From the NCBI GenBank assembly GCA_963457525.1, contig OY734805.1, positions 2,138,900 through 2,202,899 on the forward strand: a stretch of DNA of 64,000 nt, given 5' to 3'. The notes beneath the pieces were generated by a model. That model was not told where the DNA came from. It ran no database searches and worked only from the letters and a program-made list of their open reading frames with translations. The translations under genes and the position numbers were made by a program. Of this stretch, positions 2,848 through 57,849 are shown piece after piece (positions within the stretch are counted from its first letter, which is position 1; each line of letters opens with the position of its first letter). Source of the DNA: Parvibaculaceae bacterium (GTDB lineage: Bacteria; Pseudomonadota; Alphaproteobacteria; JAPOUT01).

Positions 2848-3812
2848 TCCTTCTTCAGGCTTGCGGGTCCGAGAGGGTGGTCGGCGTGAGGGTAGGCGGG
2901 GCGGTGCGAATGGTCGTGATCATGCGTGTGTGCATGCGCACCGGTGCCGATACCCTCGACATGATGATGGTGACTCTCCTGCGGCAGTCCGACTTCCGCC
3001 TCAAAACCCGGCATGCCTTCGCGGTATTTGCACAGCTGGCAGTTCATGGCATTGTCGCCGCTGTCGACCTCCTGCGCGCGCTCGAGAAACGTTTGCAAGA
3101 TAAGCGGATGGTCCGAAAAATATTTCGCCTTGACGAATTCAACACCGGGATGCGCACGTGCGGCTTCATCCACCGCCGCGTAAATCCGCTTGACCAAAAC
3201 GCCGGTGAACAAAAACCACGGGAATATCACGATGCGCTTGAAGCCCATGCGAGCGGCGTGATCAAGCGCCGGCGCGGTCAACGGGAAAGTTACGCCGGAG
3301 TAGCAAACTTCGCCCCAGCCCAGCCCCAGGCCCTCCCACAGCAGACGCATCACCTTCGAGACGTTTGCGTTGGCATCCGGATCAGACGCCCCGCGGCCGG
3401 CCAAAAGCAGCAGCGTCTCCTCGCGGGGGATGTGACCGCCGGCACCCTCCAAGGCGTCCGCAATGCGTCCGCTTGCCGCCTGCAGCAGGGCGGGCGTGAC
3501 GCCCAACTCCCGGCCGTAACGGATATTGATGCCGTTATGCGCCCGGTAATCGTTCAACAGGGCGGGAATGTCGTTCTTGGCATGCGCGGCGGCAAACAAC
3601 ATTGCGGGCAACGCAACGACATCCTTGTTGCCGCGTTGGCGCAGGGCGTCCAGGCCTTCGCCGATCGTCGGGCGCGCAAACTCCAAAAACCCGCTGTCCA
3701 CATCATGTTCGGGAAGCAGGCGTTTCAACCCGTCCTGCAAAGTGTGAAACTCGCGCACCGCATCCTCGTCACGACTCCCGTGTCCGCAAATCATTATCCC
3801 GGGCTTACCCAT
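2844..3812 (-). CDS. cbiX: Sirohydrochlorin cobaltochelatase CbiX, long form with a His-rich C-terminal tail
   Basis: Starts MGKPGIMICGHGSRD (CbiX motif). The C-terminus HHHHVEGIGTGAHAHTHDHDHSH is His-rich, and an NCQLCKYREG segment looks like an Fe-S motif. GGAGAGAG lies upstream of the ATG at 3812. Confidence 0.8.
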   Translation of the reverse strand: MGKPGIMICGHGSRDEDAVREFHTLQDGLKRLLPEHDVDSGFLEFARPTIGEGLDALRQRGNKDVVALPAMLFAAAHAKNDIPALLNDYRAHNGINIRYGRELGVTPALLQAASGRIADALEGAGGHIPREETLLLLAGRGASDPDANANVSKVMRLLWEGLGLGWGEVCYSGVTFPLTAPALDHAARMGFKRIVIFPWFLFTGVLVKRIYAAVDEAARAHPGVEFVKAKYFSDHPLILQTFLERAQEVDSGDNAMNCQLCKYREGMPGFEAEVGLPQESHHHHVEGIGTGAHAHTHDHDHSHRPAYPHADHPLGPASLKKE

Positions 3813-3942
3813 GGGCTCTCTCCGTTGTTGCAAGGGAGGGCAGTGTAGCACGGCACGAAAAGAGTCGGAAAACAAATTGAAACATCTTCCGCGTTTGCGG
3901 AGGGCGGACACCGCTCCCGGCCCGCCCGGAACGCCGAAACGC

Positions 3943-6870
3943 TCAACGGGCTTTTTGCCGTTTCTTCGAAGCCGCCTTCACCTTTGTTGCCGCCTTCGGT
4001 TTCGTGCTTCCGCGGCGTTTTAACATTGTCCGTAAAAAATGACCCGTGTGGCTGGCCTTCACCTTTGCAACCTCCTCGGGCGTGCCGCTTGCAACTATCC
4101 GCCCGCCGCCGTCTCCGCCCTCGGGGCCCAGGTCTATAATCCAGTCCGCCGTTTTAATGACTTCAAGATTGTGCTCAATCACAACGACGCTGTTTCCGGT
4201 CTCCACCAGCGCATGCAGAACTTCCAGCAGTTTTGCGACATCGTGAAAATGCAGCCCGGTTGTCGGCTCGTCCAGAATATACAACGTGCGCCCGGTTGCA
4301 CGGCGCGACAATTCCTTTGCCAGTTTAATCCGCTGCGCTTCGCCTCCCGATAACGTCGTTGCCTGCTGGCCCAGACGCATATACTCCAAACCGACACGCG
4401 CCAGCGTTTCCATTTTGTCGCGCACGGCGGGCACGGCCTTAAAAAACTCGCGGGCCTCCTCAACGCTCATGTCGAGAACATCGGCGATGCTCTTGCCCCG
4501 AAACAGCACCTCCAAAGTTTCGCGGTTGTAACGCTTGCCGCGGCAGCTGTCGCAAGTGACGTAGATATCCGGCAGAAAGTGCATCTCAATGCGGATGAGG
4601 CCGTCCCCCTGGCACTCCTCGCAGCGCCCGCCCGACACATTGAAAGAGAAACGCCCGGGTTTGTATCCGCGCGCGCGCGCCTCGGGAAGCTCGGCAAACC
4701 ACTCGCGAATCGGCGTGAACGCGCCCGTGTAAGTCGCCGGATTCGAGCGGGGGGTTCTTCCTATCGGCGACTGGTTGATGTCAATGACTTTGTCGATATG
4801 GTCAAGCCCCTCGATCTTCTCGTAAGGGGCGGGTCGCTCGCGCGCGCCGTGAAGATTTCGAACCGTCGCGCGGTAGAGCGTATCGAGCAGCAGCGTTGAT
4901 TTGCCTCCGCCCGAGACCCCCGTTACGCAAGTGAACAATCCCAACGGCAGGGAGACATTGAGGTTTTGCAAATTGTTTCCGCTCGCGCCGGTGATGCGAA
5001 GAATTCGCTTGGGATTGCTTCTGCGGCGCAAGGCGGGCAGGGGAATGCTTTTGCGCCCGGAGAGATATTGCCCGGTGAGGCTTTTGCGGCTTCTCATAAT
5101 CACGGCGGGGCTGCCTTGCGCGACAATCTCGCCGCCGTGAACGCCCGCGCCCGGCCCCATCTCCAGGATATGGTCCGCGGCAAGGATCGCTTCCTCGTCA
5201 TGCTCAACGACAATCACGGTGTTGTCCAGCGCGCATAGACGGCGGAGCGTGCGAAGCAAACGGGCGTTGTCACGCTGGTGAAGCCCGATGGAAGGCTCGT
5301 CCAGCACATACAGCACGCCGGTCAAACCCGAGCCTATCTGCGAAGCCAGGCGAATGCGCTGCGATTCCCCTCCCGAGAGCGTCGCCGAGGAGCGCGACAG
5401 GCTCAGATATTCCAGGCCGACATCGTCCAGGAACTGCAGGCGGTCGCATATCTCCTTGAGAATGCGCGCGGCTATCTCGCGCCGGTTGCCCCGCAGGCGC
5501 GCATCAAGCCCCTCGAACCACTCGCGGGCGTCGCGGATGGAAAAACGCGCAACTTCCCCGATGTGCAGCCCCTCCACCTTCACCGCCAGCGCCTCCGGCT
5601 TGAGACGAAAGCCCGTGCACGCCGAGCATTCCGTCGTAGTCTGGTATTGTTCGATTTCCTCGCGCGCCCACGAAGAGTCCGTCTCGCGGTAACGGCGCTC
5701 AAGATGCGGCACAAGCCCTTCGAATGGTTTCTTCTTTATGTGTTTACGCCTGCCGTCGGTGTAGACGAACTCAATTTCGTCATTGCCGCTGCCGTTCAAT
5801 ACAACCGAGCGCATCTTTTTCGACAGACGTTTCCACGGCGTATCCATCGAGGCTTTGTAACGGCGCACGAGAGCCTCAAGGGTTTGCAAGTAATAGGGCG
5901 AGGATGAGCGGGACCACGGCGCAACGGCCCCGTCGCGCAACGACAGATTCGCGTCGGGGACGACCAAGTCCGGGTCAATGCGATACATTACGCCCAGCCC
6001 GCTGCAGGACGGGCATGCTCCGAAAGGGCTGTTATACGAAAACAGGCGCGGCTCGATCTCTTCAATGGTGAAGCCCGAAACCGGACAGGCAAAGCGGGAC
6101 GAAAACAAAAGCTTCTCGCCGACGCTTGCGCCGCTTTTATCAAGGCTTTCCACCAGCGCGATGCCGTCGGCGAGGCGCAGGGTGGTTTCGAGAGAATCCG
6201 CCAAGCGCCCGCCGGCGTCCTTGTCCAGCACCAGCCGGTCGATGACGACCTCAATGTCATGCTTGAAGTTTTTATTCAGCGTCGGCGGCGACTCCAATTC
6301 GTACAACGTTCCATCCACGCGGACACGACGGAATCCCCGTTTGCGCAGTTCGGCGAATTCCTTGCGGTACTCCCCTTTGCGTCCGCGTGCAATCGGGGCG
6401 AGCAGATACAGACGCGACCCTTTTGGCAGCGCAAGCACGCGGTCGACCATCTCGCTCACGCTTTGGCTTTCGATGGGGAGGCCCGTCGCCGGCGAGTGGG
6501 GGATGCCGATGCGGGCATACAAGAGGCGCATGTAGTCGTGGATTTCGGTGACGGTGCCGACGGTTGAGCGCGGATTCCTGGAGCCGGTCTTTTGCTCGAT
6601 GGATATCGCCGGCGAGAGCCCCTCAATGCTCTCGACATCCGGCTTGCCCATGACCTCGAGAAACTGCCGCGCGTATGCCGAGAGGCTCTCGACATATCGA
6701 CGCTGTCCCTCGGCATAAAGGGTGTCGAACGCCAGCGACGACTTCCCCGAGCCCGATATGCCCGTTACCAGCACCAGACGATTGCGGGGGATGTCCACGC
6801 TGACATTTTTGAGGTTGTGTTCCTTGGCGTGGAGGATGCGTATCGCCTTGGTCTGTGATTTGGCAGGCAT
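3943..6870 (-). CDS. uvrA: Excinuclease ABC subunit A
   Basis: 975 aa with duplicated ABC ATPase modules ([33 protein letters not shown]), zinc-finger cysteines and the LSGGE signatures. Confidence 0.95.
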
Positions 6871-47161: not shown

Positions 47162-47650
47162 TCATTCGTTGATGTGCAACGCACAGATAAGGGTGAAGAG
47201 CCGCCTGGATGTCTCCCAATCGACGTCAATTTTGCCGGCGAGCCGTTCCTGCAGCAGCCTTGAGCCATCGTCATGCAGCCCCCGCCGCCCCATATCGATG
47301 GCCTCAATATGCGCGGACGATCCCGCCTGCATGGCTTTCCAATAGCTTTGGCAGATAAGAAAATAATCCTTCAGCAGTTTCTGAAACGGCGAGAGCGAGA
47401 GAAGAAGCCGCCCGTGCGGATCGTTGTCCTTTGTCGCGATGTCGAAAAGGAGCCGGTTATCCTCAACTCCGAGGCGCAACCGGTACGGCCCCCCCTTGCT
47501 TTGAACCGGGGCAAAATAGTTGCTCTCGAGCAAATCGTAGATGGCGACCTTGCATTCATGCTCTACGGTTTCGGAGCGCTGAAAAGCGGTTGTATCGTCC
47601 AGATCAACGCTAACGAGGAAAAAGTCTCCCTTGCGTTTATCGGGATTCAT
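47162..47650 (-). CDS. UPF0262-family protein
   Basis: 162 aa. Placement between hisD and the LMW-PTP matches the UPF0262 context as I recall it from other Alphaproteobacteria. Confidence 0.55.
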   Translation of the reverse strand: MNPDKRKGDFFLVSVDLDDTTAFQRSETVEHECKVAIYDLLESNYFAPVQSKGGPYRLRLGVEDNRLLFDIATKDNDPHGRLLLSLSPFQKLLKDYFLICQSYWKAMQAGSSAHIEAIDMGRRGLHDDGSRLLQERLAGKIDVDWETSRRLFTLICALHINE

Positions 47651-49167
47651 GGTTTTTTCATGCGCAGTTTCACGGCCCGTGCGTGGGCGTCCAGTCCTTC
47701 GGCTTGTGCGAGGGTGACGGCCGCGGGGGCGAGTTTCGCAAGCGCTTCGGGAGGACATTGCAGCAGCGAAGTCCGCTTGAGAAAATCGAGAGTCGATAGG
47801 CCGGAAGCAAAACGCGCGGTCGCGTTGGTGGGCAGCACGTGATTTGAACCGCCGAGATAATCGCCGATGGTTTCCGGCGTGTGGGCGCCGAGGAAGATGG
47901 CACCGGCGTTGTGGATGGTTTCGGCGATTTGCCCGGCATTTTCCGAGAAGATTTCCAGATGCTCGGGGGCGAGCCGGTCAACGATTTCGGCCCCCTCCCC
48001 CATGGACTTGACCAGGATGATCGCGCCGAAGTTTTTCCAGCTTTCCCCCGCGATGTCTTTGCGCGGAAGGCTTGCGAGTTGCGCCTCGACGGCCTTGGCG
48101 ACCTCGTCGCCAAGCGCGGCGTTATCTGTGATAAGGATGGCGCGTGCCGATGTATCGTGTTCGGCCTGCGAGAGGAGATCCGCGGCAATCCACTCGGCCC
48201 ACCCGGCTTGTTCGGCCGGTTTGACCTGCTTGACCTGTCCGGCCTGTTTGACCTGCTTGACCTGTCTGGCCTGCTCGGTCTGTTCGGCCCACCCGGCCTG
48301 TTCGGCCGATTTGGCCTGTTCGGTTTGTTCGGCCTGTTTGACCTGCCCGGCCTGCCCGGCCGGTTCGGCTTGCGAGGGGAGACTCACGGTAGCCCTCCCG
48401 CCCGGTTCGGTTCTCCCGGCGTTGTTGTCCCCCTCGGCAAGCACGACGATTTCGGACGGCCCCGCAATGGCATCAATGCCGCATATGCCGAAGACTTGCC
48501 GTTTGGCTTCGGCAACGAATGCGTTGCCCGGTCCTATGATTTTATCGACCCGCTCGATGCCGTCGCAGCCGAAGGCTAGCGCAGCGATGGCGTGGGCTCC
48601 GCCGAGGCGGTAAATCTCCGTGATGCCGGCGATATGCGCGGCGGCGAGCACGAGCGGCTGGATAGCGCCCTGCGGCGTCGGCGTTGCGATGGCAATGCGC
48701 GGGACGCCGGCGATGCGGGCGGGAATCGCGTTCATGAGGACGGAACTCGGATAGCTCGCGGTCCCGCCGGGGACGTAGAGTCCGACGGATTGCAGGGGTT
48801 TCCAGCGATACCCGAGCCCGACGCCTATGTCATCGGTAAAGAAGAGGTCTTCGGGCAGTTGCCGGCGGTGGAAGGCCTCAATGCGCTCGGCGGCGAGGCG
48901 CAGGGCATCAATGGTCTCGGGCTCGCACATCTCAAAGGCGGTGATGATCGCCTCTTCGGGAATGGCGAAGGCTTCATTGTGGGGCAGTTCGAAATGGTCG
49001 AATTTTTTGGTGTATTCGCGCAGGGCGGCATCGCCCTCGAGTCGCACGCGCTCGAGTATGCCGGCCACCTGGCGCGAAACATCCCCTTCGGCTTCGCGCC
49101 GGCGTCCCAGGAATTCGAGAAACCGGGAATCAAAATCTTTTTGCGCTGTATCGAAGCGGTGACTCAC
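47647..49167 (-). CDS. hisD: Histidinol dehydrogenase carrying an in-frame low-complexity insertion of about 70 aa
   Basis: N-terminal and C-terminal HisD segments are intact (GGAHAIAALAFG, AGPSEIVVLA, ADLLSQAEHD, metal-binding region). Between AGPSE..LA and WIAADLLSQAEHD sits QAGQVKQAEQTEQAKSAEQAGWAEQTEQARQVKQVKQAGQVKQVK.... Total length is 506 aa against the usual ~430. Confidence 0.8.
   Translation of the reverse strand: MSHRFDTAQKDFDSRFLEFLGRRREAEGDVSRQVAGILERVRLEGDAALREYTKKFDHFELPHNEAFAIPEEAIITAFEMCEPETIDALRLAAERIEAFHRRQLPEDLFFTDDIGVGLGYRWKPLQSVGLYVPGGTASYPSSVLMNAIPARIAGVPRIAIATPTPQGAIQPLVLAAAHIAGITEIYRLGGAHAIAALAFGCDGIERVDKIIGPGNAFVAEAKRQVFGICGIDAIAGPSEIVVLAEGDNNAGRTEPGGRATVSLPSQAEPAGQAGQVKQAEQTEQAKSAEQAGWAEQTEQARQVKQVKQAGQVKQVKPAEQAGWAEWIAADLLSQAEHDTSARAILITDNAALGDEVAKAVEAQLASLPRKDIAGESWKNFGAIILVKSMGEGAEIVDRLAPEHLEIFSENAGQIAETIHNAGAIFLGAHTPETIGDYLGGSNHVLPTNATARFASGLSTLDFLKRTSLLQCPPEALAKLAPAAVTLAQAEGLDAHARAVKLRMKKP
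48190..48390. repeat. Imperfect tandem repeat tract inside the hisD reading frame
   Basis: Units ggcccacccggc[ct]tgttcggcc and ctgtttgacctgcttgacctgtc[ct]ggcc each recur twice, alongside several shorter ctgttcgg / cctgcccggc units. The tract is in frame and encodes Q/A/E/K-rich repeats. Confidence 0.8.
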
Positions 49168-51019: not shown

Positions 51020-51099
51020 AAGAAGAAAATACTATTTTTTGAGGCTTTTGTCGTTGAAAACTATGGGGGCATCCCGTAATATGCGCTGATGATGGTTCT

Positions 51100-51384
51100 G
51101 CCGCCGTAGCTCAGTGGTAGAGCGCACCCTTGGTAGTGATTTGCCTCCCCGCTTGGAAACGGGCGGGTGCTAACTGCTCAAATTCGGGGAATCCTACGGG
51201 CATTCGGCCTACGGCAATCCCGAGCCAAGCCTCTTTCGAGGAAGGTGTAGAGACCAGACGGGCGGGACCCCTTCGGGGTCAAGGGATGGTCCGGACCACA
51301 AACGCGAATGGATATTTGCGGCCGTGAAAGCGGTAGCTGGTGTGAAGGGTGAGGTCGAGTGTCCGATTCACTCCGGCGGCACCA
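51100..51384 (+). tRNA. tRNA-Thr (anticodon GGU) interrupted by a group I intron in the anticodon loop
   Basis: Exon 1 is 51100-51134 (GCCGCCGTAGCTCAGTGGTAGAGCGCACCCTTGGT). Exon 2 is 51345-51384 (AAGGGTGAGGTCGAGTGTCCGATTCACTCCGGCGGCACCA). Joined, they give a 75-nt cloverleaf with a perfect 7-bp acceptor stem, anticodon stem CACCC/GGGTG, loop TTGGTAA and discriminator A followed by CCA. Confidence 0.8.
51135..51344 (+). ncRNA. Group I self-splicing intron (subgroup IC3-like), 210 nt, no ORF
   Basis: Exon 1 ends in U and the intron's last base is G. A GCC a few nt into the intron can pair with the exon GGU as P1. Core segments CAAATTCGGGGAATCCTA, CGAGCCAAGC, GAAGGTGTAGAGACCAGACGG and CAAACGCGAATGG closely match what I recall of the Azoarcus tRNA-Ile and Agrobacterium tRNA-Arg bacterial tRNA introns. 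Confidence 0.75.
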
Positions 51385-51528
51385 TCTTTTTTCGGGGAAT
51401 GCTTAATTTCTTGGGGGGAATTTTCAATCCACTTCTTCCCCGCCCGGTTTGAATGATTCCAGCATTCAAAGAGAAACCCCGCCTTGAAGAATCTTAGAGC
51501 AGTCAAGGCAAGGGTTTGTCATTGATGC

Positions 51529-53337
51529 TCATCCACTTCTGTTATCATTAATTCTTCTGGGTCCGAGTGTTGCGAGTCCTGCATTTGCCTGTGGGATTTC
51601 GATAGAATGACTATAGGATACGGGTACACGATCCCTGCGAACAGTGACTTGCAGCCAGACGACAGTTGAGCCTGCTGAAATTGTGATTGGGCAATTGGCA
51701 TTGTTGCAAGTTGTACTCGAGGACGAATCAAATCTGGGTGTTTGCCCCTCCGGAATAACTTGATATCGCGCAAACCAACCGTCTGCAACACCATAAGTCT
51801 CCATGCCACTAGCAATAAAATTCACCATTAAATCCTCAGTTAGAGCCTCGCTCAACTCAATTACAAAATTCAAGGTTCCGGCGACAATAGACGACTGTCC
51901 GCCATACTTGCCAGCATAACCCAGTGAAACAGTTGGTATTGGGTTTTGAAGAGTGAAATCCAGGCTCGATTGGCTTCCAAGTCGCACGAGGCTTGTGCTC
52001 CCTGAATCAACCTCAATGAAAACGGTAAAGGTCTCAGGAGGTTCGAAAGGCGAGTTCATATTGGCTTCGAGGGTCACTTCGACACTAGTATCGTTAGCAT
52101 CAATCGTTACCTGACAAGGGTTGCTTTCGCTTGCCATGTCACAATCAGTTCCGCTAACGCTTAAATTCCAATCAGCAGAAATTCCATAGTCGGCATCCCC
52201 GTCTTCTCCGCCTTCTAAAAAATTGATGGTGACATCATCGGATACCGTCTTGCTTAAAGTGATAGTTAAGGTAGCCGTTTCCCCCTCCGAGATGCTCGTG
52301 CTTTCAGCACTCAGTGAAAGAATCGCCGCTTCTTCTCTCAGCGGTTCCTCCTCCTCTTCTTCTTCTTCCTCCACCTCATTCAGTATCTCACGTTCTTCAT
52401 AGAGAACCCGTTTCTCCCGCTCAACGATTTTATACAAGTTTGAGGACATGGATCCGTCTCCATAGTTTTGCCCTTCGAAATCAGGCAAAGAAAACCGAAA
52501 CGCCAATCCTAAACTCCAACGCTGATTAATTACGAAATCTTCCTGATGCTTCTCCCAATCAGCCTCAACGAAAACGCCCGGAAAAATCCGTAAACCTACA
52601 TCGGCTCCAACTGAGACTCTCCAATCATCTGCAACATCTGCTCCACCTTCATGTCTCCAATAACCAAGACTGGCACCCGCACGAATTGTCTCTTTTTCAA
52701 GTGCGATCCTTGTATCCAATCCCTTCAAGGTCTTTTCTATAAAGTCTTTCCTTCGTCCATCCTTCTCGCTACTCAACGGATGGTAATAATTCAAAGCACC
52801 ATGGAAGATGCCGCTTTGCATGTCCACGCCAATGCCAAGACGCTTATGACCGACCCGATCAAAGTCCCAATCGTAGAAAATGGAAGCTCCCCCGATTGCG
52901 TCAATGCCGATGGGAGTGTTTGCGAGATTGGTGCGATAAACAATGCCGAAATTCCCGTCCGCACGTTCTTCCTCTCCATGCCCCTTCCAGAAGACGATTC
53001 CAGGCTGCGTGAATATCAAGTGTCCGTTTTCGTTGTAGAAAGGAATTACGAGGTCAATTTCACCTTCAAATGCAACATCCGTTGATTCCTCGCCCACCCA
53101 GCTCAGCGATGAATCTATCTGGAACCCTTCATCAAACAATGCAAGACCGCCCCGATACAGAGCATCTTCAATCGCATCCACAATCAGTTGAGAGCCGGTT
53201 TCCCGCAGGCTCAATGTTTGATTTTCGGTTACTGAAAATTGGGGATGAGAATAATTCGTGGTCGCTGTTGCCGATGAACCAAGTGGAAGCATCAAGAGCG
53301 TGGATATTGCAATGATAGCAGAATGGAACAAACGCAC
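51529..53337 (-). CDS. Putative outer-membrane surface protein A: N-terminal beta-barrel-like domain plus C-terminal Calx-beta/Ig-like repeats
   Basis: Signal peptide; about 285 aa of alternating amphipathic beta-strand segments with aromatic girdles (GGASIFYDWDF, RLGIGVDMQSGIFHGALNYYH, WRVSVGADVGLRIF, QRWSLGLAFRFSL); an E9 linker; then two or three beta-sandwich repeats fitting a Calx-beta pattern (ISEGETATLTITLS...DVTINF...DYGIS...CQVTIDANDTSVEVTLE). Confidence 0.6.
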   Translation of the reverse strand: MRLFHSAIIAISTLLMLPLGSSATATTNYSHPQFSVTENQTLSLRETGSQLIVDAIEDALYRGGLALFDEGFQIDSSLSWVGEESTDVAFEGEIDLVIPFYNENGHLIFTQPGIVFWKGHGEEERADGNFGIVYRTNLANTPIGIDAIGGASIFYDWDFDRVGHKRLGIGVDMQSGIFHGALNYYHPLSSEKDGRRKDFIEKTLKGLDTRIALEKETIRAGASLGYWRHEGGADVADDWRVSVGADVGLRIFPGVFVEADWEKHQEDFVINQRWSLGLAFRFSLPDFEGQNYGDGSMSSNLYKIVEREKRVLYEEREILNEVEEEEEEEEEPLREEAAILSLSAESTSISEGETATLTITLSKTVSDDVTINFLEGGEDGDADYGISADWNLSVSGTDCDMASESNPCQVTIDANDTSVEVTLEANMNSPFEPPETFTVFIEVDSGSTSLVRLGSQSSLDFTLQNPIPTVSLGYAGKYGGQSSIVAGTLNFVIELSEALTEDLMVNFIASGMETYGVADGWFARYQVIPEGQTPRFDSSSSTTCNNANCPITISAGSTVVWLQVTVRRDRVPVSYSHSIEIPQANAGLATLGPRRINDNRSG

Positions 53338-53498
53338 TTGAAAATCTCCCTTAATAAGAATTGTTAAACATTTGAAGGGATAGGCGGCAAGAGGACTGTT
53401 TCGTTCCGTTTGGAGGTTATTTCCAATTTATCCCCTCGCCGCCCGTTTGGTGTTAGTTGAGAGTATCTTTGCGATTACTTCCCGTTCCAGTTTGAAGT

Positions 53499-55205
53499 TT
53501 ATTGTAAAGTAATCGTTTGTTCTGATGGACTGCCCTCTACCAAACCTGTTGAACCAGCCGAAGCAATACTAATAGAGACAGTGATGTTACCAGTTCCCGC
53601 GGAGACTCCGATAACTGACACATCAGCTTCGGTTTGACCGGCAGTAATAGTGAATTGGCAATTATTGATATCTGGACAAGTTTGAGCTCCTGCACTAACT
53701 ATCCATTGGGATGAATAAGCCAATGTGCTTGACCCACCAACATTCAGCGTGACGTCTTCACTAAGAGTCCTGCTCAATTGAGCTCTCATTGTTGCAAATC
53801 CACCAACGTCAACACCCCTGCTCTCTTCTATCTCTCCAGTTGAGAGCGTCGTGCTGACATAACTCAGCGAAACAGTTGGCACCTGCGGATCCGCAGAGAT
53901 AGTGAAAGACAAACTTGAATTACCGAGCATCAATTTCGTATTGCCTGCAGAAGCAATCGCCATAGAAAGATTTATATCCTCGACAAGTTCGTTGGGCTCA
54001 CCTTCGACAATGGAAATCGTTACATTGGCACTGGTATCCCCAGCGGCAATCATCACCTGGCAATTATTCTCTGTGACTTCGGTGCAAGCCGTGCCGCCGA
54101 CAGACACGGTATAATCGTTAGAAGAACCATACATTGCAGAACCAGTTCCAACGAGATTCAAAGTGACATCTTCCGTCAACGCTTCGCTCAACTGGATTTG
54201 AAATTCCACCGTATCGCCTTCTGCAACACTTTCACTTCCAGTGTGAACAATCGAAGCAGTCGGTCCCGCAACACGTTCCTCATAAAGAACCCGCTTTTCA
54301 CGGTCTACGATCTTATACAGGTTTGCAGACATTGACCCGTCCCCGTAGCTCGCGCCTTGAAGGTCGGGCAAAGAAAACCGGAACGCCAAACCGGCAAAAA
54401 TACGCTCGTCCAGCACGAGGTCGTCCTTATGCTTTTCCCATCCGGCTTCCACGAAAACTCCGGGCATGACCCGAACCCCGAAATCTATCCCCATCGAGGT
54501 TTGCCATCCGCTCTGGGGGTCCTCCTGTCCGCCGCTCTCTTCCCCGGTGTAATCCCAATAACCGACAGATGCTTCCGCGCGCACTATCTCTTTCTCAATA
54601 GCCAAGCGTAAATCCATTCCATCTACGGCTTCCTCAATGAAACCCTCTCGGCCATCTTCAACTTCGCTAAGCACATGGTAATAGTTCGCTCCCAGTAGCA
54701 AAGAGCCGCTTTGCAAATCAATGCCGCCCCCGGCGCGAGAATGTCCGATCTGGAAATCCTGATCATAGAAAAACGAAACACCGCCAATAAGGTCTCTGGT
54801 CAGTTCGGTGCGATAGACAAGACCAAAGTTACCGTCAATGCGTTCCTCTTTTTCGATCCCGGTCCAAAACACGGCGCCGGGTTGTGCGAATAATACATGC
54901 TTGCCGTAATGCAACAACGGGATTACGGCATCCACCTCGCCTCTGATGCCCTCAACGTCTCCCAAATCGTAACCAATGGACGAGTCGAGTTGGAAACCAC
55001 CGCCAAACACCTCAACGCCTGCCACTCTGAAAGCGTTCTCAATGGCATCAATAACGATTTGGGATCCGGTCTCACGCAAACTTAGCGCGCGGTCTTCAGT
55101 TACTGAAAATTGGGGATGGGAATAATTCGTGGTTGCTGTTGCCGAAGACCCGATGGAAAATATCAAGGCTACGGACATTAAGGTAATCAAAAGACGGACA
55201 TTCAT
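53499..55205 (-). CDS. Putative outer-membrane surface protein B, paralog of A
   Basis: Its first ~310 aa are highly similar to protein A (SSATATTNYSHPQFSVTE...GLAFRFSLPD.QG..YGDGSMS.NLYKIV.REKRVLYEER). The C-terminal Calx-beta-like repeats are diverged. Confidence 0.6.
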   Translation of the reverse strand: MNVRLLITLMSVALIFSIGSSATATTNYSHPQFSVTEDRALSLRETGSQIVIDAIENAFRVAGVEVFGGGFQLDSSIGYDLGDVEGIRGEVDAVIPLLHYGKHVLFAQPGAVFWTGIEKEERIDGNFGLVYRTELTRDLIGGVSFFYDQDFQIGHSRAGGGIDLQSGSLLLGANYYHVLSEVEDGREGFIEEAVDGMDLRLAIEKEIVRAEASVGYWDYTGEESGGQEDPQSGWQTSMGIDFGVRVMPGVFVEAGWEKHKDDLVLDERIFAGLAFRFSLPDLQGASYGDGSMSANLYKIVDREKRVLYEERVAGPTASIVHTGSESVAEGDTVEFQIQLSEALTEDVTLNLVGTGSAMYGSSNDYTVSVGGTACTEVTENNCQVMIAAGDTSANVTISIVEGEPNELVEDINLSMAIASAGNTKLMLGNSSLSFTISADPQVPTVSLSYVSTTLSTGEIEESRGVDVGGFATMRAQLSRTLSEDVTLNVGGSSTLAYSSQWIVSAGAQTCPDINNCQFTITAGQTEADVSVIGVSAGTGNITVSISIASAGSTGLVEGSPSEQTITLQ

Positions 55206-55639
55206 TGATAGACTCCTATGGTTAGAACGAAAGAATTTGCTCCGATACTCTGCCCGAAAGACTACCTGAAATTCGTTGTGGTGTAAAACAAATTTTCGAC
55301 GACTGTCTTTCGACTGTCCTTCAGTTGAATACGGGATAGGATATACAACCTATGAGGATGTCCGAATCGGTTTGAGCGACTGATGGAAATGTTCCAAAAA
55401 CCCCGTATTTCCGGCAAAAATGGGGAATTGAGTAGCTGTTGTCACAAAGCCCCGAATCGGTTGGGATGCCATTAGTTTAGCCCAATACCCTAATAGTTGC
55501 TGGAAATTGTTGTATTTTTGCCGGTGTCTATCGTGTAAGTATCCGGTTTTTCCGAAAAAAGCTTGATTATTGCCTGGTTCCGGACTCTGGTTGCAATGGT
55601 TGTCTGTAAGCCAATCCTGTGTGCAAACCAAACCCAAAG

Positions 55640-55725
55640 AAAGCCCCGGCATCATCCAAAGGATTTTGTCGGGGCTTTTTCGTTGAAGCCCCCAGCCGAA
55701 GAAATGGAAACGGCTGGGGGTCTTA
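55640..55725 (-). terminator. Two tandem stem-loops downstream of the lipoprotein operon; the first looks like a bidirectional intrinsic terminator
   Basis: AAGCCCCG-N21-CGGGGCTT is flanked by T-rich runs on both strands (TTTTTCG on plus, TCTTTGGGTTTGG on minus). It is followed by CCCCCAGCCG-N12-CGGCTGGGGG. Confidence 0.5.
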
Positions 55726-55734
55726 TAGTGTCAG

Positions 55735-56031
55735 TTATTCGGCTACGTATTGTCTTTCCATTTCTTCGGCAACACGTATATCCTTCTCTCCAAGTTCCCT
55801 TTTGATACTTGGAGCATTTTCTCTGATTGCATCCTCATTTACGTCATCATGAGTTTTAACAAAAGCCCAAAAAGAGGCGTTTGTATCATTACTCTTGTCA
55901 TTCATTGGAATGAATCGTTTGTCCAATTCAGATCCAATAAATGTTTTAAATTTTTTTCGGTCATGAATATCATTGTTATCACCATTAGTTAGGGGTTTAT
56001 TCCCCCCTAGCCTGTACTTATCGATCCGCAA
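55735..56031 (-). CDS. Small hypothetical protein, low GC
   Basis: 98-aa ORF starting 4 nt after the lipoprotein stop; no recognisable motif. Confidence 0.4.
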   Translation of the reverse strand: MRIDKYRLGGNKPLTNGDNNDIHDRKKFKTFIGSELDKRFIPMNDKSNDTNASFWAFVKTHDDVNEDAIRENAPSIKRELGEKDIRVAEEMERQYVAE

Positions 56032-56034
56032 TGT

Positions 56035-56970
56035 TTATTGCCTCGTCCCACCAAAAGCACCCGTGACCGTTCTGGTATTAAAGAACCCACCGACTTCGGT
56101 ATGCCCTGTACCATAGAACTGTCCGCTGACTTCCTCGTTATTAGTAGATGATGTAAAACTCCCGTCCGTGACCGCCAAACCTTCAAAAGAGATTGCCGAT
56201 ATGCCTGCTACCGCTTGATTGTTTATTGTCCGCCAGTTCTCAAACATTAAATCGACTGTTGGACTTGCAAGATCGCTGATGGTAATGGTCGCATTACCTC
56301 GTGCGAAAGCCCTGGTAGTTTTTACAGAGGCGACTGCGGCGCCTTCCCATGTTGCTTCGCCCGTTCCGGTGGGATTTGAACCAACAGGAACACCAGTAGA
56401 GTGAGCCATGAATCGATATTCTCGATCGCTGGATTCCCCAATCGTTATCTGTGTAGTTCCAAAAACACTGTCATCAAGCCATCCCGCAAATGTTCTAAAT
56501 TCGAATGGGGTCTCTATGAATTCTGTTGTAAAAATTCCACCTGCGAGAGAAGCACCACCAAATGTTACGCTACCTGATACTCTAGATTCAGGATCAACCA
56601 GGGTTGGGGTATCAGTAGAAAGGAGGAAAAGGTTACGAACCCTCACACGATCAGCCTCAAACGAAAGAGAATTCGAATCGATAAACTCGATAGCACATAT
56701 ATCCCCGCCACAAAGAGTTTCAAAGTTATCACTTGCTCCGTAAACATCGCTAATTATAGATATCGTTCCATTAACACCTGCGATTGCTGAATAATCTGTA
56801 TAGGTTTGAGAATTTTCGGCTGCAACGAAACTAGGAAAGCCGGCAAACGGATCAGATACAGGTGTTAACGGAGTGCTACCACCCCCACCACCTCCACCGC
56901 CTCCGCCTCCGCATGCGAGTAGAAGCGTCATTGCAGGGGCTATTGCAATCAATCTTATCGTGTTCATCAT
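56035..56970 (-). CDS. Surface lipoprotein with a TbpB/fHbp-like C-terminal handle/beta-barrel domain
   Basis: AAGGAG sits 6 nt before ATGATG at 56970. Signal peptide plus lipobox LLLAC, a 13-residue poly-Gly tether, and the C-terminus EVSGQFYGTGHTEVGGFFNTRTVTGAFGGTRQ, which resembles the terminal strands of Neisserial TbpB/fHbp-type 8-stranded barrels. Confidence 0.6.
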   Translation of the reverse strand: MMNTIRLIAIAPAMTLLLACGGGGGGGGGGGSTPLTPVSDPFAGFPSFVAAENSQTYTDYSAIAGVNGTISIISDVYGASDNFETLCGGDICAIEFIDSNSLSFEADRVRVRNLFLLSTDTPTLVDPESRVSGSVTFGGASLAGGIFTTEFIETPFEFRTFAGWLDDSVFGTTQITIGESSDREYRFMAHSTGVPVGSNPTGTGEATWEGAAVASVKTTRAFARGNATITISDLASPTVDLMFENWRTINNQAVAGISAISFEGLAVTDGSFTSSTNNEEVSGQFYGTGHTEVGGFFNTRTVTGAFGGTRQ

Positions 56971-57016
56971 AGTATCTCCTTGTAGGTTTAAGTTACAGAT
57001 AATCGGCATTATATCA

Positions 57017-57244
57017 TCAATGATTTTCCGTGTCATCCTTATCGTTCCCGTCATCCTCTGTCTTTTCAAAAAACACTTCCACCATTTTAGGTTGCCCGTT
57101 TTCATCTTCTACAATCATAAACCGTCTATGTAAATCTTCCTCTGTCGGCTCAGTAGGGAATTTCGTCATTGAGCAGGATTCCGAGGTCTTGAGAATTGCT
57201 TTCGTCAATGTCTCTAAGTTCTTTACGGATGCTTTTCGTTTCAT
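57017..57244 (-). CDS. Small acidic hypothetical protein (doubtful)
   Basis: 75-aa ORF that overlaps the transposase remnant; no RBS checked. Confidence 0.25.
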   Translation of the reverse strand: MKRKASVKNLETLTKAILKTSESCSMTKFPTEPTEEDLHRRFMIVEDENGQPKMVEVFFEKTEDDGNDKDDTENH

Positions 57245-57530
57245 TCCTTAACTCCTTCATCATCAGCGTCTTGCCTACCATAGCACCAAACAACGATTCA
57301 AGACGGTCAATCGTGTCTCGCTTAACATTACCGCTATCCAGACGGAACGCAAACTCATTCATGTAGAACTGGAAGTATTTCATGCTCCACCAAACATAAG
57401 TGCCTTTCCACGCCCTCTTAACAACAGCCCAGTCCGACTCAATGGAGTTCGTATTACCGCCCATTGCTTTCACCCATTCAGCAGGCGAGGATTTGTTTAT
57501 GGACGCACCCTTGTAACCGAGATTCCGCAA
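57150..57530 (-). pseudogene. IS1595-family transposase remnant (C-terminal fragment only)
   Basis: FYMNEFAFRLDSGNVKRDTIDRLESLFGAMVGK matches the conserved C-terminus of IS1595/ISXO2-like transposases (Y.NEFAFR.N.R). The DDE N-terminal two-thirds are absent and no terminal inverted repeats were found. Confidence 0.6.
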
Positions 57531-57771
57531 ACCCTGATAGTAGGAAGCGTCATCCGTGTAGTGGTCGCACCAGGCTCGACATACTTGGCAATGATTTTTT
57601 CACCAAAAGATTTTGTCGGGGCTTGTATTGCCGATTCGATTTAGCGGTGTTTCGGGCCGCGATGCGGGGCAGCGCGAATCACCTCGCGTTTCGGTTTTAG
57701 CGCGAGGCAGCAAACCAAACGGTTTTAGCCCAAGTGTTTTTTGTCGTCTCTGCACGCTACCGGAAAGGAAG

Positions 57772-57849
57772 TGGTCGGAGCGGCGGGATTTGAACCCACG
57801 ACCCCTTGTCCCCCAGACAAGTGCGCTACCGGGCTGCGCTACGCTCCGA
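57772..57849 (-). tRNA. tRNA-Pro (anticodon GGG)
   Basis: The reverse complement CGGAGCGTAGCGCAGCCCGGTAGCGCACTTGTCTGGGGGACAAGGGGTCGTGGGTTCAAATCCCGCCGCTCCGACCA folds as a cloverleaf with anticodon loop CTGGGGG. Confidence 0.8.

Follow-up and report, generated by a model that had tools for sequence, protein, structure and literature searches.

A probable group I intron of the Thr.5Ug class in a bacterial tRNA-Thr(GGU) gene

Introduction

Is the locus at 51100–51384 of our window (the whole 64-kb stretch of DNA that we analyzed) a working tRNA gene split by a ribozyme, or the relic of one? And if it works, has such an intron been seen before? Our answer to the first question is that the tRNA-Thr(GGU) gene at this locus is very probably functional; a 210-nt group I intron of IC3 type, belonging to the Thr.5Ug class, splits it at the U36/A37 boundary. 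This reading is carried by the anatomy of the sequence, by homology, by covariation in both the intron and the exons, and by fixation in the population. The second question is answered by a preprint from 2020.

A tRNA gene in two exons

The gene lies on the plus strand, as do both its exons and the intron. The 5' exon (51100–51134) supplies the 5' strand of the acceptor stem, the D arm, the 5' strand of the anticodon stem, and loop bases U32, U33, G34, G35, and U36. The 3' exon (51345–51384) begins with A37 and A38 and runs through the 3' strand of the anticodon stem, the variable loop, the T arm, and the 3' strand of the acceptor stem to A73 and an encoded CCA. The intron between them (51135–51344) is supported by RF00028, by a covariance model of its own family, and by homology. 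The splice-site U36 is the last base of the 5' exon, and the omega-G, G51344, is the last base of the intron. The initial annotation had held that the exons join into a canonical tRNA-Thr(GGU), and ARAGORN agrees: the joined exons give a canonical tRNA of 75 nt, and the genomic sequence read in intron mode returns tRNA-Thr(ggt) i(36,210). The anticodon arm had been described as identical to that of Escherichia coli tRNA-Thr(GGU), and a 31-nt query across the spliced junction bears this out, with 100% identity to annotated tRNA-Thr in 5,426 of 5,426 complete E. coli genomes. By coverage, the top E. coli BLAST match to the full-length spliced tRNA was tRNA-Ile; the junction query settled the identity as threonine.

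The insert was said to hold no open reading frame and to be flanked by an exon-terminal U and an intron-terminal G, and so it proved: any ORF contained within it is shorter than 50 aa. A 75-aa ORF with a TTG start (51279–51506, minus strand) extends over the intron's 3' end, most of its length being outside. Upstream, a consensus scan picked out a promoter-like site, TTGAAA-17 nt-TAATAT (51054–51082, plus strand), a pattern match only, which ends 17 nt before the 5' end of the tRNA.

Taken alone, the window would accommodate splice sites four bases further left, after U32 and G51340, giving the anticodon GUG and a histidine tRNA. That register also offers a 7-nt loop (UUGUGAA), a U at -1, and a G at the intron end, and tRNA-His with A73 occurs in some Alphaproteobacteria. 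A comparison of 60 homologues led us to reject it. The shifted register yields GUG just once among them; the other anticodons include AUG, AGG, and GCG, and U33 or the terminal G is often missing, whereas the threonine register works in all 60. Moreover, the guide GCC pairs with GGU and not with CCCU, the junction is the exact E. coli tRNA-Thr match, and G1–C72 and C2–G71 are threonine identity pairs. The chance that this is a histidine gene is practically nil, and we read it as threonine throughout.

In E. coli, the threonine identity elements are G1–C72, C2–G71, G35, and U36, and the window's spliced tRNA-Thr folds into a cloverleaf that carries all of them. Across 29 distinct spliced tRNA sequences from the family, the cloverleaf is 99.8% paired, and G1–C72 and C2–G71 are invariant. 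The two bases of pair 27–43 lie on either side of the intron and change together, the pair being U-A, A-U, or G-C.

One feature of the tRNA is odd. Its T loop is UCCGAUU, which gives U54-C55-C56 where U54-U55-C56 is near-universal; C55 is common to the window and a syntenic relative (L190), and UUC occurs in the 27 remaining distinct host tRNAs. The substitution could mean a weakened tRNA. Along with an RF00028 score under the gathering cut-off, it is what speaks for a decaying pseudo-tRNA with an inactive intron remnant, the work being done by an intact tRNA-Thr(GGU) elsewhere. We consider this very unlikely. Decay is hard to square with a perfect cloverleaf across 29 distinct exon sets, the intron-spanning pair included, or with core helices that are all intact and covarying. 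The gene is also kept in seven conspecific contigs, and the 85%-identical relative shows compensatory changes. Nor is there an uninterrupted tRNA-Thr in the 8-kb loci of the 59 other carriers; in the 64-kb window, ARAGORN finds no other tRNA-Thr. A functional gene is the better account.

A group I fold supported by covariation

We assessed a P1–P9 model of the intron on 59 homologous tRNA-Thr introns, with slid partners and 500 shuffles as controls. Paired bases fill 91.7% of the cells, against 31–46% for slid partners. Both-sided changes occur in 44 of the 63 pairs, no shuffle of the 500 reached any of the measures, and compensatory changes fall in P2, P3, P5, P6a, P7, P8, and P9b. Independently, RNAalifold recovered P1, P2, P3, P4, P5, P6a, P8, and P9b, together with the exon–exon anticodon stem. 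The folding energy of the single sequence is no better than that of shuffled versions (z = 0.04), an uninformative comparison. The 59-sequence alignment provides a covariation-backed P1–P9 model for a compact (~200-nt) relative of the Azoarcus ribozyme.

All the helices are on the plus strand. P1 (51132–51145) pairs exon GGU and intron base A1 (51132–51135) with the internal guide UGCC (51142–51145), and U51134 meets G51143 in the splice-site wobble. Its pairs are kept among the 59 homologues (G-C in 59/59, G-C in 59/59, U-G in 58/59), and RNAalifold gives the same helix. A candidate P10 is provided by UUU 51140–51142, which is able to pair with AAG 51345–51347 of the 3' exon; covariation is impossible here because the exon is invariant. 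The terminal G is present in 60/60 family members, a count that follows from how the exons were joined. P2 (51149–51166) pairs 51149–51155 with 51160–51166 and is capped by a GAAA tetraloop, L2 (51156–51159); among the homologues, compensatory changes affect 7/7 pairs and the loop is almost invariant.

P3 (51174–51265; 51174–51179 with 51260–51265) encloses the P4–P6 domain and the 5' strand of P7, with 100% of cells paired and double changes in 4/6 pairs. P4 (51184–51223; 51184–51189 with 51218–51223) is 99.7% paired and encloses P5 (51193–51194 with 51213–51214) and P5a (51198–51201 with 51207–51210); one P5 pair switches from C-G to G-C in 23 sequences. In the P4–P5 region, CCUACG...UACGG resembles what we take to be the receptor for a GAAA tetraloop, CCUAAG...UAUGG. 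P6 and P6a occupy 51224–51246. P6 (51224–51226 with 51244–51246) is invariant across the homologues; in P6a (51230–51233 with 51238–51241), 3/4 pairs are 98% paired and have compensatory changes, the innermost pair being 48% paired in a gap-rich column.

The guanosine-binding helix is the P7 pseudoknot (51250–51292), in which G51250 and GACCA 51252–51256 pair with UGGUCC 51287–51292 and A51251 is bulged. It is 99.7% paired; one U-A becomes C-G in 19 sequences, and an A-U becomes G-C or U-A in 13. The P8 hairpin (51266–51280; 51266–51271 with 51275–51280) is shorter than in most relatives, and its four outer pairs are 100% paired, three of them covarying. The P9 domain (51295–51341) comprises P9 (51295–51298 with 51338–51341), P9a (51303–51309 with 51314–51320), and P9b (51322–51325 with 51330–51333). 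P9b, capped by GAAA (51326–51329), is 96% paired with 4/4 pairs covarying. Gaps in the alignment leave P9 and P9a with weaker support, and P9 is just 4 bp long in the window intron.

The intron has the core expected of group I (P3–P8 with the P3/P7 pseudoknot, the bulged A in P7, the P4–P6 domain, and covariation), a 5' splice site with a U-G wobble in P1 and an internal guide, and a 3' end with omega-G and potential P10 pairing. Conservation among homologues extends to both GAAA loops (L2 and L9b) and to the guide GCC.

Why default annotation misses the gene

Seeing the locus at all required the intron mode of ARAGORN and the E-value mode of Rfam. ARAGORN without intron mode does not report it, nor does Rfam at gathering thresholds, and both defaults overlook the gene; annotated that way, the genome would seem to be without a tRNA-Thr(GGU). 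The RF00028 result has two sides. The match runs the full length of the model (1–253) at a local E of 5e-5, but scores 27.8 bits against a gathering cut-off of 50 bits. Two related tRNA-Leu introns also fall under that cut-off, at 36.9 and 45 bits, and a survey preprint states that the RF00028 seeds include no bacterial sequence and sets a cut-off of 18–20 bits (Williams 2020, bioRxiv 10.1101/2020.01.27.920355). For both these reasons, the miss reflects the model and not the sequence.

A covariance model (CM R1), built from the cores of 25 further tRNA-Thr introns with the window's lineage excluded, finds a single match in the 64 kb, at 51171–51294, with 115.9 bits and E ~7e-30; it is a model of the P3–P7 core and may not be Thr-specific. 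The signal at this locus is far beyond chance. The Azoarcus-like IC3 core recognized in the initial annotation is supported by these scores, and the two motifs on which that recognition leaned are where they should be, GGTGTAGAGACCAGACGG at 51244–51261 and CAAACGCGAATGG at 51299–51311.

A mechanism by analogy with Azoarcus

The Azoarcus tRNA-Ile intron self-splices robustly in vitro (PMC13168695). It resembles the window intron in its site (36/37), length (205 vs 210 nt), P1–P9 layout, P1 of 3–4 bp, and GAAA tetraloops in L2 and L9, and its J6/7-P7-J7/3 segment (GGUGUAGAGACYAGACGG) is near-identical. The differences are also plain. Global identity is ~58%, the host tRNAs differ, P8 differs, and the P9 domain is organized otherwise; the Azoarcus guide GUG pairs with CAU, whereas the window guide GCC pairs with GGU. 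Splicing has been demonstrated for Azoarcus, and for the window intron we infer self-splicing catalysis from this well-studied relative.

On this analogy, the gene would be transcribed into a 285-nt precursor and the intron would fold into a P1–P9 ribozyme, with guide UGCC pairing to exon-end GGU and the first intron base and U36 held in a U-G wobble. Free guanosine bound in P7 would attack after U36. The terminal G51344 would then occupy the guanosine site in P7 while UUU 51140–51142 aligns AAG of the 3' exon as P10, and the 3'-OH of U36 would attack after G51344, ligating U36 to A37 and releasing the intron. The predicted product is a standard 75-nt tRNA-Thr reading ACC and ACU.

Many group I introns depend on a protein helper or chaperone. 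The window intron could be genuine and still need one in the cell, and its P8 and P9, both shorter than in most relatives, point that way. Against this, both fold-stabilizing GAAA tetraloops are conserved, and the Azoarcus intron, similar in size and architecture and the closest characterized relative, needs no help in vitro. We think helper dependence unlikely and favor an intron that splices itself.

A class catalogued in 2020

The initial annotation placed tRNA-Thr outside the known intron carriers, while allowing that such an intron might have been described. It had been. Williams 2020 expands the types of bacterial tRNA group I intron from four classical ones to 21, and among the sequences of its seed alignment is Rba53.Thr.5Ug, which derives from Rhizobiales bacterium Ga0077537. 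That seed is 100% identical to the intron of a locus (L181) in our own alignment and covariance-model family. The window intron shares with Thr.5Ug its host tRNA-Thr(GGU), its site at 36/37 (after loop position 5), U at -1, the terminal G, guide UGCC, and an IC3 core that includes the GAAA loops. Its lineage is a different one, its length is 210 nt where the seed has 258 nt, and its P6a, P8, and P9a are shorter. Homology runs at 63.6% global identity to the seed and 70–88% to closer members. The window intron is a fresh example of a class already catalogued in 2020 and not a new kind. Thr.5Ug is known just from this computational survey. The window locus is a well-documented instance of a class from a preprint table, and it leaves the knowledge of group I introns unchanged.

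Other relatives differ more. Introns at 36/37 of tRNA-Thr(GGU) are reported from Patescibacteria by Nakagawa et al. 2026 (PMC13011429); these share host and site with the window intron but are highly divergent, cluster among IA-type introns, and go undetected by RF00028, which does detect the window intron, a typical member of IC3, though weakly. The Agrobacterium tumefaciens tRNA-Arg(CCU) intron (Arg.5Ug; Reinhold-Hurek & Shub 1992, as represented in citing papers) is likewise an alphaproteobacterial IC3 intron at 36/37 without an ORF, compared here via the shared seed alignment only, and differs in host tRNA and guide. The tRNA-Leu(UAA) introns (Leu.3Ug) of proteobacteria and cyanobacteria share the IC3 core, with ~70–76% identity over 130–170 nt, but reside in a different tRNA and insert at 34/35. 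A Leu.3Ug copy is also found on enterobacterial resistance plasmids. The proposal that the insertion follows position 36, at a site common to bacterial tRNA introns, was right about the position and about Ile(CAU) and Arg(CCU); it was wrong about Leu(UAA), at 34/35, and fMet, at 33/34.

Distribution and conservation

A scan of genome contigs returned 84 loci, and at 59 of them this intron interrupts a tRNA-Thr(GGU) gene at the identical position. That puts the class in at least 59 further species-representative genomes, nearly all of them Alphaproteobacteria. Nine carriers are named isolates: Acuticoccus mangrovi, A. yangtzensis, A. kalidii, Roseicella frigidaeris, Roseicella sp. DB1501, Crenalkalicoccus roseus, Paracraurococcus ruber, Siccirubricoccus sp. 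G192, and Pseudaestuariivita rosea. With such cultured isolates, a Thr.5Ug intron could for the first time be tested by experiment.

Conspecific contigs were traced by exact-protein matches to FabH and the aminotransferase; the 465-aa AroA ORF gave no exact-protein match, probably from a different start having been called. All seven (7/7) carry the intron, and a J2/3 substitution is the single base difference among them. In L190, the 85%-identical syntenic relative, the intron is present and 88% identical to that of the window, and the differences between the two include compensatory ones in P2 and P9a; the window intron's identity to other tRNA-Thr introns is 70–75%. The intron has the look of a long-standing resident, kept mostly by vertical descent in scattered lineages of Alphaproteobacteria.

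Another carrier (L205) has a displaced 3' half of tRNA-Thr(GGU) ~125 nt downstream of its intron-bearing gene. On viral contigs, a general IC3 core pattern gave at least 120 matches. Among the matches listed, one call of tRNA-Thr(GGU) (L077) was rejected, as requiring U at -1 together with a terminal G turns it into tRNA-Asn(GUU) with the intron at 35/36. Boundary ambiguity of this kind in ARAGORN is described by Nakagawa et al. 2026 (PMC13011429).

The neighboring low-GC segment

Outside the intron, between the convergent genes for tRNA-Thr and tRNA-Pro(GGG) (57772–57848, minus strand; ARAGORN and Rfam), lies a low-GC variable segment (51393–57766). The tRNA-Thr gene does form its left border, as first described: GC falls from ~0.61 upstream to ~0.47 just downstream of the gene and recovers near 57.5 kb, the segment itself ranging over 0.43–0.52 against ~0.6 in its surroundings. 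By Pfam, it contains two paralogous genes for inverse-autotransporter beta-domains, a TbpB-like ORF, and a fragment of an IS1595 transposase. A 19-nt T-arm-like match to tRNA-Pro occurs at 56367–56385. The segment is compositionally distinct and absent from a close syntenic relative: L190 has ~730 bp in place of the window's 6.4-kb segment.

Did the intron arrive with this island, or is integration of the island tied to intron mobility, as was suggested at first? The segment starts 9 nt past the 3' end of the tRNA and varies between strains, and the displaced half gene in L205 hints at use of the tRNA as an integration site. Yet L190 has the intron without the island, which largely refutes the link, and the intron is common to all conspecific contigs while the gene content beside it differs from the window's in the two with a resolved flank (the L207–L209 side, and L211). 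A tRNA-targeted integrative island would have an integrase adjoining the tRNA and, at its far border, the 3' end of that tRNA as a direct repeat; Pfam found no integrase among the five segment ORFs scanned, and a search of the whole window with up to three mismatches allowed turned up no such repeat for tRNA-Thr. The intron encodes no homing endonuclease, and tRNA-Pro(GGG) borders the island just as tRNA-Thr does. A link is barely credible on this evidence, and the suggestion finds no support. The intron is independent of the neighboring variable island.

Why keep the intron?

Were this the sole tRNA-Thr(GGU) gene, all decoding of ACC and ACU would depend on a ribozyme, and the long retention of the intron might reflect function and not mere persistence. 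We find this improbable as a whole, but it can take two forms. Since A37 can be modified only after splicing, the intron may act as a guanosine- and Mg2+-dependent checkpoint on the supply of tRNA-Thr. Or it may shield the DNA of the anticodon loop from integrases that target tRNA-Thr, the hint being the displaced 3' half in L205.

Gene architecture

A real and conserved group I intron of IC3 type makes up the 210-nt insert at 51135-51344 (forward strand); the initial annotation had recognized it correctly from sequence alone. The tRNA-Thr(GGU) gene that hosts it looks functional. The gene runs on the forward strand from a 5′ exon at 51100-51134, ending in CACCCTTGGT, to a 3′ exon at 51345-51384 that opens with AAGGGTG and closes with an encoded CCA. 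The joined 75 nt fold as tRNA-Thr(GGU) with a regular cloverleaf according to ARAGORN, which in its intron-aware mode also reads the genomic sequence directly as tRNA-Thr(ggt) i(36,210), in agreement with the proposed exon coordinates. The initial annotation had equated the anticodon arm with that of E. coli tRNA-Thr, and correctly so: in all 5,426 complete E. coli genomes, annotated tRNA-Thr genes match a 31-nt query over the spliced junction at 100% identity. Run by default over the whole window, ARAGORN returned tRNA-Lys and tRNA-Pro only, with the split tRNA-Thr absent, and Rfam at gathering thresholds gave the same two tRNAs. Routine annotation would therefore overlook the gene. A promoter-like TTGAAA-17-TAATAT lies a short way upstream.

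The insert has a T immediately before it and a G as its last base. A second register in the window likewise has a U before the intron and a G at its end, and would give the anticodon GUG (His). Across the family, GUG appears in that register only once, the remainder being scattered, implausible anticodons, often without U33; the Thr register fits 60 of 60 members. Among 29 distinct tRNAs spliced in the Thr register, 99.8% of cloverleaf cells are paired, and G1-C72 and C2-G71 never vary. The two halves of pair 27-43 come from separate exons and covary (U-A in 16, A-U in 10, G-C in 3), good evidence for selection on the spliced product.

U55, the pseudouridine-55 site, is near-universal in T loops. 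All 27 of the other distinct tRNAs hosting this class of intron have it, within a T loop UUCRAUY; the T arm of the window's 3′ exon (51354-51370) has the loop UCCGAUU, with C55. The same loop occurs in L190, a syntenic Hyphomicrobiales MAG about 85% identical to the window, where the mature tRNA is identical and the intron 88% identical, P2 and P9a showing compensatory changes. Closer still are conspecific metagenome and MAG contigs located through exact-protein look-ups (98-99% identity; GCA_026708405.1 and GCA_026708465.1 among them). The gene with its intron is present in all seven whose sequence extends to this locus; the difference from the window is a single base, 51170, in unpaired J2/3.

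Group I membership and anatomy

The full Rfam RF00028 model (1-253) aligns to 51128-51320 with a local E of 5e-5, at a score of 27.8 bits, under the cut-off of 50. Two related tRNA-Leu introns also fall short, at 36.9 and 45 bits, and none of the RF00028 seed sequences is bacterial according to Williams 2020 (bioRxiv 10.1101/2020.01.27.920355). Membership was therefore tested independently, in three steps. A covariance model built on core sequences from 25 further tRNA-Thr introns, with the window lineage and its closest relative excluded, has a single match in the 64-kb window, at 51171-51294, scoring 115.9 bits (E ~7e-30).

Homologues came from a scan of 185,579 species-representative genomes for CTTGGT tied to two conserved core blocks. 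It gave 84 loci, at 59 of which the splice rule yields a canonical tRNA-Thr(GGU) interrupted at the identical site by 193-292 nt, a lower bound because exact core-block matches were demanded. On a MAFFT alignment of 59 distinct precursors, a P1-P9 model written for the window sequence pairs in 91.7% of cells vs 31-46% with partners slid by 1-3 columns, the former figure being inflated by the model's origin in one aligned sequence. Compensatory changes are not so inflated: two-sided changes occur in 44 of 63 pairs, and 0 of 500 shuffles reach any observed measure. Covariation is clearest in P7, where C-G replaces U-A in 19 sequences, and G-C or U-A replaces the following pair in 13; P2, P3, P5, P6a, P8 and P9b covary too. 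RNAalifold, blind to this model, recovered P1, P2, P3, P4, P5, P6a, P8 and P9b, along with the anticodon stem that joins the two exons. The independent model and the P1-P9 covariation bear out a group I intron of IC3 type in tRNA-Thr.

From the window sequence and the homologue alignment, P1 pairs exon GGU and intron A1 (51132-51135, +) with UGCC (51142-51145, +), U36 forming the splice-site wobble with G; the GCC guide is conserved in 58-59 of 59 homologues. A candidate P10 is UUU at 51140-51142 (+), which can pair with the AAG opening the 3′ exon. A bulged A sits in P7, as is usual. In the P5 region, CCUACG...UACGG resembles the CCUAAG...UAUGG tetraloop receptor. GAAA tetraloops on P2 and P9b, both nearly invariant, are a likeness to the Azoarcus ribozyme, whose tRNA-Ile intron is about 58% identical to the window's globally. 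As originally described, the intron lacks an ORF of its own; it also lacks a homing endonuclease gene. Self-splicing of the Azoarcus intron is well documented (PMC13168695), and by homology the window intron would be catalytic as well.

Distribution and earlier descriptions

Nearly every carrier is alphaproteobacterial, among them members of Acetobacteraceae, Acuticoccus, Hyphomicrobiales, Rhodobacterales, SAR116, Micavibrio and Magnetovibrio; nine carriers are named isolates. A few carrier MAGs bear other labels: Chloroflexia (L130, CAVWLQ010000003.1, a 1.54-Mb contig), Bryobacterales and Acidimicrobiia. Their tRNA-Thr exons and introns (L130, L172, L186) are of alphaproteobacterial type, and L172 has an identical counterpart in an alphaproteobacterial MAG. 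Possible explanations are mis-binning, mislabelling or lateral transfer.

The initial annotation had placed tRNA-Thr outside the known carriers, while allowing that such an intron might already have been described; the literature does list this class. To the classical bacterial hosts, Leu(UAA), fMet, Ile(CAU) and Arg(CCU), the tFind software brought an extension to 21 settings, as given in Williams 2020, whose supplementary seed alignment includes 'Rba53.Thr.5Ug'. The intron of Rhizobiales bacterium Ga0077537 (L181) matches that seed at 100% identity, and the window's is 63.6% identical to it globally. The survey of Nakagawa et al. (mSystems 2026, PMC13011429) counts 333 intron-bearing tRNAs among 4,934 complete genomes and reports Thr(GGU) introns in Patescibacteria; these share the window's 36/37 site but are of a divergent IA-like type, whereas the window's is IC3. 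The window intron thus belongs to a class already catalogued computationally; the literature searched yielded no experimental study of an alphaproteobacterial tRNA-Thr intron.

The variable locus beside the gene

GC content drops directly after tRNA-Thr. L190 lacks the segment at 51393-57766; only about 730 bp precede tRNA-Pro(GGG) there. In the window it holds two inverse-autotransporter beta-domain paralogues (602 and 568 aa), a TbpB-like lipoprotein ORF and an IS1595 transposase fragment (Pfam); conspecific contigs (L207-L211) have three such paralogues (about 720, 619 and 722 aa), arranged differently, and several assemblies break at the locus. The segment, missing in L190 and differently arranged in conspecific contigs, is thus a hypervariable locus flanked by convergent tRNA-Thr and tRNA-Pro(GGG) genes. 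A link between intron mobility and island integration had been suggested. The intron is found both with and without the segment, Pfam found no integrase among the five island ORFs scanned, and repeats of the tRNA-Thr 3′ end were looked for and not found; we see no connection between intron and island.

A 22-nt direct repeat (55656-55677 and 57603-57624, 21/22 identical) brackets the TbpB-like ORF and IS1595 fragment, and a 19-nt T-arm-like sequence, matching tRNA-Pro at 17/19, lies at 56367-56385 inside a 356-aa ORF. Both may be remnants of an insertion event. In L205, an AT-rich carrier read on the reverse strand, the intron-bearing gene (1059-1346) is followed about 125 nt downstream by 47 nt (~1469-1515) of a different tRNA-Thr(GGU), from anticodon loop to CCA. 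This 3′ half looks like a trace left by an integrative element that had targeted the intron-bearing tRNA.

Additional observations

On an E. coli IncF plasmid (L001, LR890263.1), tRNA-Leu(UAA) at 2954-3250 is split by a group I intron of ~200 nt (RF00028, 36.9 bits). On enterobacterial resistance plasmids it sits between mph(A) and aac(3)-IId, and it looks like a chromosomal fragment that travelled with a resistance gene. Its core is matched at ~76% in about 1,260 plasmid records (E. coli, Klebsiella, Salmonella, Acinetobacter and others); the PLSDB table has no annotation at the locus.

The IC3 core pattern has at least 120 matches in IMG/VR viral contigs (L003-L122), the intron-bearing tRNAs among the matches listed including Leu(UAA), Arg(UCU), Arg(CCU), Phe, Pro, Lys, Ser and Met by ARAGORN. 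On one of these, the 297-kb phage-like contig L077 with its array of 25 tRNAs, ARAGORN called the intron-bearing tRNA at 3860-4147 Thr(GGU); the splice rule makes it Asn(GUU), interrupted at 35/36.

In the window, the hisD ORF (47647-49167, reverse strand) has an in-frame, low-complexity insertion of ~73 residues at 48199-48416. This histidinol dehydrogenase insertion (…QAGQVKQAEQTEQAKSAEQAGWAEQTEQARQVKQVKQ…) consists of imperfect short repeats. It is missing in L190, whose longest reading frame there is 455 aa, and its length varies among conspecific contigs, in which the protein has 497, 512 or 515 aa or the gene call is broken.
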